Origin: an uncultured archaeon
Lineage (GTDB): Archaea; Asgardarchaeota; Lokiarchaeia; Sigyniarchaeales; SOKP01
Direction: 5' to 3'
NCBI GenBank assembly: GCA_964388035.1
Contig: CAYLZE010000009.1
Coordinates: 1-36,700, forward strand
DNA: 36,700 nucleotides
A program made the translations under genes and the position numbers. The notes beneath the pieces were generated by a model, which had not been told where the DNA came from, made no database searches, and was given only the letters and a program-made list of their open reading frames with translations. Positions 3,439-16,132 of the stretch are shown here, one piece after another. The stretch's first letter is position 1. Each line of letters begins with the position of its first letter.

Positions 3439-4158
3439 ATGAAAAGATTACAAAATAATAAAAATGGAATAATTCAAAGCCAAAAGCTATTATATGGAAA
3501 ACTAAGAAAATTAAATCAATTATTCAAAATTCATTTTTCATTTTTATTCTTCTTCTTCTTATTTTGTATTCTCAATATTATTCTTTGGTCAATTTTATTC
3601 ATTACTGGTCAATTAAAATTTGAATTGACTCAAATATATGGAATGTTCGGAACTATAGTGACTTTTTTTCAAATACTAGTACTTTTTTTATTATTAATTT
3701 ATATAGGAATACAAATTTTTTTTTATGCGTTATTTATTTTCAGAGGAGTTAATTCTTTAAAATAAATTAGAGATAAAAATGAAGTCCAGATATCACTCTA
3801 TAATGGAATTACCCTCTATATTAACCACCTCTATGATTTTTTTAGTCGTTTTTCAAAAGAAAAAATAAACTTGAGTAAATTAGTTAATGGATTCCTATTC
3901 TTCAATTTCTTCTTCTTTTTTTATGTAATTTTTTTATTTACACGGTTGATGGAAGTTAATAATGCGAACAATTTAATAACTTTTTATAGGGTGATATTAT
4001 TTCTCTTAATGCTATTCTTTATGATCAGCAGCTTGATAACTTCAATCAAAATTAGAGATGTGATAATGAAATGGGAGCACTTATTCCCTAAATTAGAAGA
4101 ATGGGCTCAGGAATTAGAGCAATATCCCCCTAAAAACTCAATTAACAGGCATGAGTAG
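3439..4158 (+). pseudogene. Multi-pass membrane protein interrupted by one in-frame TAA (3763-3765)
   Basis: ORFs 3439-3765 and 3871-4158 share a frame and 3766-3870 is stop-free, giving one 240-codon frame with about 4 hydrophobic segments. Confidence 0.65.
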
Positions 4159-4468
4159 GAACCTTTGTAATAATTCTAAAAGTGATTTTGCCATGAATTC
4201 TTCAAAACGCAGCAAATTTGAAATATGGTCTAAAGTATTGGAATTTTGTCTAAGGAAAAAAAGGAGTCAAACATGGTTATTACAAAACGCACGTTTAAAT
4301 ACAAGTTCGATAAAGGAAGCTCTTCAGTTTCTCTTACCTCGAAATTTAATTGAAGAATTAAACGAAGAAAATGTGATAAAGTTTCAAACAACTGCTAAAG
4401 GAGAAGAGGCATTACAGAAATTTTATACTCTCATTAATGATTATTTTGATTTAAATCCGGATAAATAA
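4151..4468 (+). CDS. Winged helix-turn-helix transcriptional regulator (archaeal HTH_45-like)
   Basis: KRSKFEIWSKVLEFC...LLQNARLN...LQFL...NLI...FQTTAKGEEAL pattern; true start may be ATG at 4193. Confidence 0.8.
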   Translation: MSRNLCNNSKSDFAMNSSKRSKFEIWSKVLEFCLRKKRSQTWLLQNARLNTSSIKEALQFLLPRNLIEELNEENVIKFQTTAKGEEALQKFYTLINDYFDLNPDK

Positions 4469-10604: not shown

Positions 10605-10757
10605 TCAATCCCGGTCATATAATTCATTGGGTATCGACCCACAAAATGCCTCAAATCTAAAAAATTTCATACATTTTTGGCAATTGGGACAATAATAGAT
10701 TCCAGGTTCCTTATCTCTGTAAGAAAATCCGCATTGTTTACAAATCGCAATCTTCAT
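10605..10757 (-). CDS. Small zinc-ribbon protein, 50 aa (Cys-containing paralog of 15523-15636)
   Basis: MKIAICKQCGFSYRDKEPGIYYCPNCQKCMKFFRFEAFCGSIPNELYDRD*; CxxC-13-CxxC; below the ORF-track size cutoff. Confidence 0.8.
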   Translation of the reverse strand: MKIAICKQCGFSYRDKEPGIYYCPNCQKCMKFFRFEAFCGSIPNELYDRD

Positions 10758-10890
10758 AATTTGAAGATGATATTACCTTGTTTTTAATTTAAACATAATA
10801 TTTTAATCATTTTAGATAAAGTTGAAAAGTAAAAAATAATAAAGTTTCCAATTTAACTTATTTTTGAAAAAAGAAAAGAGATTGTAAAAA

Positions 10891-10960
10891 ATTCCAACAC
10901 CCTCGCGGGGTAGTCCTCGGGCATCTCATTTTTTCATGTACGAATCATTCTGATTGGAAT
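10891..10960 (-). promoter_or_regulatory. Eukaryote-like SECIS element 1
   Basis: AUUCCAAU/GUUGGAAU lower stem; AUGA (10948-10945) and GA (10915-10914) core; upper stem UUCGuaCAU/AUGccCGAG; A-rich loop GAAAAAAUGAG; side hairpin ACCCCGCGAGGGU. Confidence 0.75.
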
Positions 10961-11477
10961 CTTGTATCATGGAATCAATAATTTCTGTAAGCAATGGTAT
11001 GGAAGGCCTTTCCGCATGAGCACTGATAGATTTCCATTTTATTTTAAAATTTTTATCAATAAGAAAGGTGGAAGGAATAGCTATCCTTGATCTCAAATCC
11101 TTTGCATTCATTTTACTCCAAGCTATAGATACTTCATAGTTCTTAGCAATCTTAGCTCCTCTATCGGCAATCATGATGAAATTAAATCCATTCTCTTCAT
11201 AGCATGTGCGCAAATGATGAGCGCTATCTACAGCGATCGTAATTAATTCTACCTTTCTTTTTTCAAATTCAGAAATATTTTTATTTAAATTTGCTAAATG
11301 GACCAATCATGGTTTTCAGAATGCACCTCTAAAAAATTCGATAAAAAGTACATTCCATTTTTGAGTTAAATCTTTCAATACGATCCTTTTTCCATAAATA
11401 TCTTCAATATCGATGGGAGGTGCTTCCGTACCTACTTCCAGACCCAAATTTTGATTCGAAATGTCCTCGTTAGTCAT
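10926..11477 (-). CDS. Peroxiredoxin-like (AhpC/TSA, Trx-fold) selenoprotein with a UxxU motif, about 183 aa
   Basis: ORFs 11316-11501 and 10926-11306 are in frame, joined by TGA-AAA-CCA-TGA (FFRGAF-U-K-P-U-LVHL) where the family has RGxWCPxC; later ADRGAKIAKNY and PSTFLID motifs; SECIS-like hairpin at the 3' end. Confidence 0.88.
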
Positions 11478-11756
11478 ATAAGAAATAATGAGTTCGTTCA
11501 AATTTAAAATAATCGAAAATGGAATTGGATTCTTACATGAAAGTACATTTATCCCTAATTAAGATAAGATTCAATTAAGACCAAATTGGAAAATCATGTG
11601 AAATGTTCAAAAGTAGAATCTAGTATAAAATGTACCTTTTATATACTCGCTTATTTTGAAAAAAGCAATCCGTTTATTTGTATATATAGTGTAGGTATAT
11701 AATTCTGCAATTTTTGATAAAAAATCCTTTAATTTGGCAAATTACTATGGATTCTT

Positions 11757-15248: not shown

Positions 15249-15422
15249 TTCTTTCTGTTATTGTTATCTTTAAAAATCTTGATAAAAAATTCCTATATTA
15301 TGTATTTTAGACGAATATTGTAATAAGATTATCTGACACACATTATTGAACATTAATTTTGAATTAATTAATAAGTTATAAAGATTCTTTATAAGACAAG
15401 ATTCTACTTTGAATAATCCTTA

Positions 15423-15509
15423 AAGGGAATTTTCTTACCCGGGCGAGGGTTGTCGGCACTTGTCTAATTTTTTTACAAGCACTTCATTCTTAATCAATTA
15501 AATTCCCTC
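15423..15509 (-). promoter_or_regulatory. Eukaryote-like SECIS element 2
   Basis: GAGGGAAUUU/AAAUUCCCUU lower stem; AUGA (15487-15484) and GA (15454-15453) core; upper stem GUGCUUGU/ACAAGUGC; loop AAAAAAAUUAG; side hairpin ACCCUCGCCCGGGU; same 29-nt core spacing as SECIS 1. Confidence 0.8.
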
Positions 15510-15522
15510 ATTTCTGCAAAAT

Positions 15523-15636
15523 CTATCATTTTGAATAATATTCCATGAAATATGATAGCTTTTTACAATGCGGACAATAGACATACCCTTGGGATTTATC
15601 TCTGAAAATGTACCCGCATTTAGAACAGATTATCAT
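15523..15636 (-). CDS. Small zinc-ribbon protein; candidate selenoprotein with C-terminal Sec (37 aa)
   Basis: MIICSKCGYIFRDKSQGYVYCPHCKKLSYFMEYYSK-UGA-UAG; the UGA aligns with Cys39 of the 10605-10757 paralog; SECIS 2 begins about 14 nt after the UAG. Confidence 0.7.
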
Positions 15637-16132
15637 GATTCATAATTCATTAACGGAACACATAAGTTAAATTTAAGCTTTATAATGTAAAAGAATACAA
15701 GAAATTGGAATTATAAAAATCAAATATTTTAAATAGTTTCTGTTAAATTGTGCGTGGTAATTGAAATTCAAAATGAATTATCATTCATAATTCAATAAGT
15801 AGAACAATTTTGCAAGGGTTTTTCTATATTATATAGAGATGATAATTTGTTCATAAATGCTGAAGAGTTAAAATGGTTTAAATAATCAGTGCTACGCATG
15901 GAATTACATTCATATAATTGAGCTATATTGAATATATTACTAAACAATTATCTAGGTTCAATTAACTATTGAATAAATATTTCCTCGTAATTAATTATTT
16001 TAAATAAACAACGTTTAATATTTCAATTAAAACAAGACCATATATTGAACAGAAAAAGATTTAAAGCCATTTAATTTTTTTTCCATAACTTACTTAAATA
16101 AATTTATTTTTGCTAATATTAGAGGAAAAAAT

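Follow-up and report, generated by a model that had tools for sequence, protein, structure and literature searches.

The locus analyzed here raises the question of whether a reading frame interrupted twice in close succession, at TGA AAA CCA TGA, encodes a redox protein with two selenocysteines (Sec) or is a gene that has lost its full-length product. It lies in the window, the whole 36,700-nucleotide stretch of DNA that we analyzed, which belongs to an assembly of 5.47 Mb in 211 contigs with a completeness of 96.7%. An earlier note on this DNA had proposed the first of these readings, namely a peroxiredoxin (Prx)-like selenoprotein with a UxxU active site that decodes both UGA codons from a single 3' SECIS element.

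Proteins of this kind have precedents. In Lokiarchaeota, Mariotti et al. 2016 described PrxL.1, in which both redox-box Cys residues are replaced by Sec and for which a diselenide was proposed, along with further one- and two-Sec PrxL homologues (PMC4989117). According to Huang et al. 2024, 43% of the Sec-using Asgard archaea have Prx-like selenoproteins (PMC11227280), and a 2026 review includes a Prx-like thiol:disulfide oxidoreductase, "UxxC, UxxU", with one to two Sec residues (PMC13188914). The remark in the earlier note that Prx-like selenoproteins had been reported in Lokiarchaeota is thus correct and applies to the two-Sec form as well (PMC4989117). Two-Sec PrxL of Lokiarchaeia has been known since 2016 and is not a discovery of the present work; our concern is with the particular form that it takes in this genome.

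Two UGA codons in one reading frame

The PrxL frame opens with the ATG at 11475-11477 and closes with the TGA at 10926-10928 on the minus strand, and the TGAs at 11316-11318 and 11307-11309 are the sole in-frame stops inside it (Table 1). Translation of 10926-11477 bears out the proposal that two ORF fragments are one frame, which reads FFRGAF-U-K-P-U-LVHL across the junction. Under translation table 11 this frame is cut into ORFs at 11316-11501 and 10926-11306, and public gene calls contain just a 126-residue C-terminal piece of PrxL (P0002). Since TGA closes 22% of the long open frames of this genome, it is an ordinary stop elsewhere and not a codon reassigned genome-wide.

The TGA pair is also present in the Logan contigs of three separately assembled salt-marsh metagenome runs (X1, X2 and X3), which cover 11307-11318 and do not differ there from the window; neither TGT nor TGC occurs in them at either position. 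The contigs have a low depth of about 2-7, and those of a further run (X6) leave the motif uncovered. No RNA run was among the sequencing runs listed for this sequence. Because X1-X3 may include the source sample, their agreement is evidence against an assembly error and does not represent independent populations. A single variant of the coding sequence was seen in the run contigs, a synonymous change from GGA to GGC at position 11157.

Table 1. Positions of PrxL, its SECIS element and the associated zinc-ribbon ORFs in the window
Feature	Position	Strand	Remarks
PrxL coding sequence	10926..11477	minus	183 codons and TGA stop; Sec at codons 54 and 57
UGA codon 54, redox-box position 1	11316..11318	minus	Sec in 118/118 homologues
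UGA codon 57, redox-box position 2	11307..11309	minus	homologues: TGA 37, TGT/TGC 81
Loki-type SECIS	10878..10964	minus	full-length match to covariance model R1, 68.4 bits, E 1.4e-16
SECIS lower stem	10954-10960 with 10891-10897	minus	
SECIS AUGA core	10945-10948	minus	
SECIS 5' arm	10936-10944	minus	
SECIS 3' arm	10916-10924	minus	
SECIS apical loop	10925-10935	minus	11 nt
SECIS GA	10914-10915	minus	
SECIS side hairpin	10898-10912	minus	
CAA (Gln172), in the place of the TAA stop of L016	10962..10964	minus	two-sequence alignment
Terminating UGA inside the SECIS apical loop (GAAAAAAUGAG)	10926..10928	minus	
Type-2 small zinc-ribbon ORF (P0004)	10605..10757	minus	50 aa; directly downstream of PrxL, as in relatives
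Type-1 tiny zinc-ribbon ORF	15523-15636 (feature 15416..15663)	minus	37 codons; ends ...YYSK-UGA-TAG
SECIS of the type-1 zinc-ribbon ORF	15416-15503	minus	R1 49.9 bits, E 3e-11; 19 nt past the ORF

Fold and active site of the PrxL protein

The Pfam profiles AhpC-TSA (E 7.2e-23, residues 15-148) and Redoxin (E 4.5e-14) both match the protein in alignments that span both TGAs. Its closest solved relative by sequence is ResA 4nmu (E 4e-12), whose W-C-K-P-C aligns with F-U-K-P-U, and the UGA pair does fall, as had been claimed, at the redox-box positions of AhpC/TSA-like proteins. An AlphaFold model computed with 61 homologues (pLDDT 87.3) has a Prx/ResA-type thioredoxin fold with U54 just ahead of a helix that begins at residue 55, and its Foldseek matches include Bcp4, ResA, AhpE and PrxQ, with a TM score of 0.76 to Bcp4 3hjp. 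Sec54 corresponds to the TxxC Thr of Prx and to the first CxxC cysteine of ResA; Sec57 corresponds to the peroxidatic Prx cysteine and to the second cysteine of the ResA box.

PrxL is Prx-like in fold and ResA-like in its active site, which agrees with the description of PrxL by Mariotti et al. (PMC4989117). With the canonical peroxiredoxins (BCP/PrxQ, AhpC) it shares the fold and has its second Sec at the position of the peroxidatic Cys, but the Thr of TxxC is replaced by Sec54, the PxxxTxxC pattern is absent, and the catalytic Arg, in an alignment with 2ywn, gives way to Pro135, which is invariant in the PrxL family. The likeness to ResA/TlpA (4nmu, 1st9) lies in the alignment of WCKPC with FUKPU at a helix N-terminus and in a cis-Pro that precedes the TFLID strand. 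PrxL differs from ResA in having Sec for Cys, in an N-terminus that, as read, has neither a membrane anchor nor a signal peptide, and in a score of 57.3 bits on the ResA model NF002854, against a cut-off of 170. The note's comparison with SelL stands in part. Like PrxL, metazoan SelL has a UxxU box in a Prx-like thioredoxin fold, encoded by UGAs two codons apart and served by one 3' SECIS, and its UxxU diselenide is described by Shchedrina et al. 2007, as cited in PMC4989117. The box is thus of the same kind, but PrxL of the window is not a SelL orthologue, scoring 39.7 bits against a cut-off of 120 on the NCBIfam model SelL_rel_redox (NF040769), and the likeness is one of analogy only.

All nine residues that are invariant in the family are kept in the window protein, including P135, W148 and R157-P158, and 3 of the 19 near-invariant ones are altered. 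It also carries an extra Cys, C92, in a column occupied by F, L, Y or M in the other homologues. Cys outside the redox box is absent in 107 of 117 homologues; Mariotti et al. noted this absence for PrxL as a property and not a definition (PMC4989117).

Homologues and phylogeny

Searching 400 genomes from this phylum, we recovered 118 PrxL homologues in 90 genomes, nearly all of them within the window's own family-level group. These relatives are Promethearchaeota (Lokiarchaeota) MAGs, among them Loki_b32 and bin41, which had been used in the earlier Asgard selenoprotein studies (PMC4989117, PMC11227280). The survey of redox-box states bears out a conserved UGA/Cys pattern, with 81 UxxC, 37 UxxU and no CxxC: position 1 is TGA in every homologue, and position 2 is TGA in 37, TGT in 44 and TGC in 37.

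In the tree the window gene groups with the PrxL of Lokiarchaeia, in a clade of five (SH-aLRT 95). The other four members (L016, L017, L027 and L076) are all U-x-P-C, so the window copy is the only UxxU of its clade; the sister clade is all UxxU (support 87). As the fork is a polytomy, the second Sec of the window may be either an independent gain or one that was kept here and lost in its neighbors. Well-supported branches force at least 7 changes of the Cys/Sec state at position 2, and the tree indicates that UxxU arose inside the Asgard PrxL family, out of UxxC. The end branch of the window gene measures 0.9 against a median of 0.1, and together with the altered near-invariant residues this makes the copy look fast-evolving. 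Its nearest homologue is 51% identical, and synonymous sites are therefore saturated for dN/dS. PrxL had no match at E 1e-10 in the only other genome of this genus.

Compared with the PrxL.1 kind already described from the same Asgard lineage, the window protein has the same AhpC/TSA-type thioredoxin fold without a Prx signature, Sec at both redox-box positions, and a single lokiSECIS near the gene end. It differs in its distance from the nearest homologue, its extra C92, its UxxU box amid a U-x-P-C clade and, as detailed below, in the position of its stop codon.

Two further sequences were encountered in the course of the survey. A distant PrxL paralogue in the same genome (C14:29365-29742, L015) is 26% identical and has one in-frame TGA in a box that would read U-P-Y-C; covariance model R1 (see below) found no convincing SECIS near it. 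A public protein related to PrxL (P0003, 171 aa) has Trp at redox position 1 (FFRGAW-W-KPC), presumably from a TGA read under another code in a mis-annotated selenoprotein.

A SECIS element that overlaps the coding sequence

Just past the stop, the PrxL homologues share a pattern made up of AUGA, a 9-nt arm, an 11-nt A-rich loop ending in AG, a second 9-nt arm and GA, followed by a small hairpin, with the whole element closed by a lower stem. The published lokiSECIS pattern (PMC4989117) agrees with these elements. A covariance model, R1, was built on 90 SECIS elements of relatives with the window left out. In the 90-element alignment the upper stem is 90% paired and shows changes on both sides in 9 of 9 pairs; none of 500 shuffles reached as high a covariation, and no slid register comes near. 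R1 matches the window over its full length at the 3' end of PrxL (Table 1), with the AUGA core 361-370 nt past the two UGAs, and it found no second SECIS nearer to them. Across the whole genome it reports five further sites: three follow HdrA-VhuD pairs, one follows a VhuU-like selenoprotein gene, and the fifth is at 15416-15503 in the window. The model therefore marks the known Loki selenoprotein set. Rfam at its gathering threshold gives nothing in the window, and no Rfam family fires on the Loki-type SECIS here. When the 3' UTR was folded alone, an alternative hairpin centered on the AUGA of the stop region appeared (-14.1 kcal/mol), but with a z of 0.13 it was no better than shuffles, and it was dropped in favor of the homology-based fold that the covariance model backs.

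In the window element the upper stem includes a U.C and an A.C mismatch next to each other. Its stability of -2.0 kcal/mol (median -5.9) places it 100th of 106, with six intact relatives equally weak or weaker. The score of the whole element nonetheless exceeds that of several elements from intact relatives.

The stop codon of the window copy lies within this element. Alignment with L016 sets ...ATT TAA ATC CCA... of that homologue against ...ATA CAA GAT TCC... of the window, which suggests that the ancestral stop was lost here by a change of TAA to CAA. Loss of the stop adds 12 codons taken from the 5' half of the SECIS, namely its lower stem, AUGA core and 5' arm, and translation would then run on to a UGA in the apical loop. 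In 95 of the 104 homologues with a recognizable SECIS, the stop precedes the AUGA by 4-98 nt, and the window is the only one in which it lies beyond the core. As a separate observation, the stop is the UGA of the AUGA core itself in 8 of the 104 (L023, L031, L033, L039, L043, L079, L081 and L087). The single eukaryote-like SECIS (AUGA...GA) anticipated by the earlier note was thus found at the 3' end of the gene, but it is not purely a 3' UTR element, because its 5' half is inside the coding sequence.

Selenocysteine machinery of the genome

The genome contains SepSecS (385 bits), a SelD gene with one in-frame TGA, an EFSec-like gene (237 bits) and a PSTK-like gene (153 bits). ARAGORN and a whole-genome Rfam tRNA-Sec scan detected no tRNA-Sec, and a pattern search located a candidate directly upstream of SepSecS at C6:~4040-4210 (L001 921-1088). 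Its CUUCAAA anticodon loop has UCA as the anticodon, and its acceptor stem is 9 bp long. On the Rfam tRNA-Sec model it scores 25 bits, which is below the gathering score, apparently owing to what look like insertions in the T-arm and behind the 5' strand of the acceptor. Judged from these features, the gene beside SepSecS is a probable tRNA-Sec. ARAGORN reports just 22 tRNA genes in the 5.5 Mb assembly, many of them with introns; standard tools detect the tRNAs of this lineage poorly.

Zinc-ribbon genes around PrxL

In at least 14 loci of relatives from several genera, PrxL is immediately preceded on its strand by a tiny zinc-ribbon ORF (type 1) and immediately followed by a second, small one (type 2) (L016, L017, L025, L027, L043, L045, L049, L073, L076, L091, L092, L099, L100 and L113). 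Thirteen of the upstream ORFs close with ...K-Cys or ...K-UGA before the stop, while that of L100 has ...K-UGA without the preceding F, S or Y, and the downstream ORF carries a conserved AFCG tail. An extra SECIS hit between the upstream ORF and PrxL occurs in all 8 loci whose upstream ORF has a UGA end and in none of the 5 with a Cys end. Both small ORFs are present in the window (Table 1), with type 1 located 4 kb upstream of PrxL on the same strand rather than directly upstream as in relatives. NCBIfam gives only weak matches to the type-1 ORF, all far below cut-off, and a selenoprotein of this type is absent from the seven Asgard selenoprotein families of PMC11227280. The other neighbors in the window encode an LRR protein, a methyltransferase and a glutamate dehydrogenase, and offer no functional hint.

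Discussion

Taken together, our analysis makes it very probable that this gene genuinely encodes a cytoplasmic two-Sec thiol/selenol oxidoreductase of the PrxL family with the box U54-K-P-U57, in an archaeon of the Lokiarchaeia (Promethearchaeota) type. As has been proposed for Loki PrxL.1 and for SelL, a single SECIS would recruit EFSec with its Sec-tRNA, and both upstream UGAs would be recoded. The U54/U57 pair is then expected to cycle between diselenol and diselenide, or to pass through a selenenyl intermediate; the diselenide is suggested by the CxxC-like geometry at the start of the helix in the model and by the SelL precedent. Because the Arg and the Thr of Prx are replaced by cis-Pro135 and Sec, respectively, we suspect that PrxL is no true peroxiredoxin but exchanges disulfides and selenides at low potential, in the manner of ResA/TlpA. 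In the SECIS loop, the third in-frame UGA would terminate translation: by the time a ribosome arrives there, the 5' arm has been melted and no SECIS remains for its recoding.

Alternatively, the gene could be a decaying copy, that is, a former UxxC PrxL in which the second TGA, the lost stop and the weak stem reflect relaxed selection and from which no full-length product is made. The U-x-P-C boxes of its four nearest relatives, its long branch, its lost stop, the low rank of its upper stem and the lack of an orthologue in the same-genus genome all fit such a course. However, the frame continues for 126 codons past the second TGA, to 183 in all, without a TAA or TAG at 33% G+C, and shuffling of the coding sequence gave such a frame in only 2 of 200,000 trials. 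The invariant residues of the family are moreover intact, the SECIS, at 68 bits, still outscores several of those from intact relatives, 37 homologues attest that the UxxU state is viable, and the only variant seen is synonymous. We therefore consider decay unlikely.

It is also conceivable that one or both UGAs are decoded otherwise, for example as Cys or Trp by near-cognate read-through, or that they terminate translation to give two small products. Gene callers do split PrxL in this way, and one relative has been translated with Trp at position 1. Yet long frames of this genome regularly end in TGA, the genome has Sec machinery, the family shares a SECIS, and neither half of the protein alone makes a thioredoxin fold, all of which leaves this reading very improbable. 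That both TGAs are artefacts of sequencing or assembly has a negligible chance of being right: the low depth of the run contigs is the one point that could be raised in its favor and no supporting evidence was found, whereas separately assembled contigs of three runs are identical over the motif, and homologues from other assemblies, 118 in all, show the same states again.

Returning to a genuine two-Sec PrxL, the conserved gene order raises the tentative possibility that it is not a stand-alone enzyme but the center of a three-gene module in which the zinc-ribbon proteins, the first ending in Cys or Sec and the second with a single tail Cys, are its redox partners or substrates. According to this proposal, to which we give rather less than even credence, the module would have been pulled apart in this genome, where PrxL would also have gained its second Sec and a coding sequence that ends in its own SECIS loop. 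The zinc-ribbon proteins and PrxL might then exchange via selenenyl-sulfide or diselenide bonds. If the module proposal is true, the locus would provide a natural case of a UGA placed beyond the reach of SECIS recoding, with the SECIS unfolded by translation.

As a selenoprotein, the PrxL of the window adds little to the 37 UxxU members of the survey, and the interest of this copy is modest, resting on the SECIS-overlap arrangement and the zinc-ribbon synteny. With a UGA in its SECIS loop and a translated 5' arm, it is a natural construct whose arrangement bears on the distance and unfolding rules of archaeal and eukaryote-like Sec recoding. For the family as a whole, the frequent Cys/Sec flips at position 2 make PrxL a good system for studying the benefit of a diselenide relative to a selenenyl-sulfide, and the Cys/Sec neighborhood of zinc-ribbon genes provides a first lead to a partner for these proteins.
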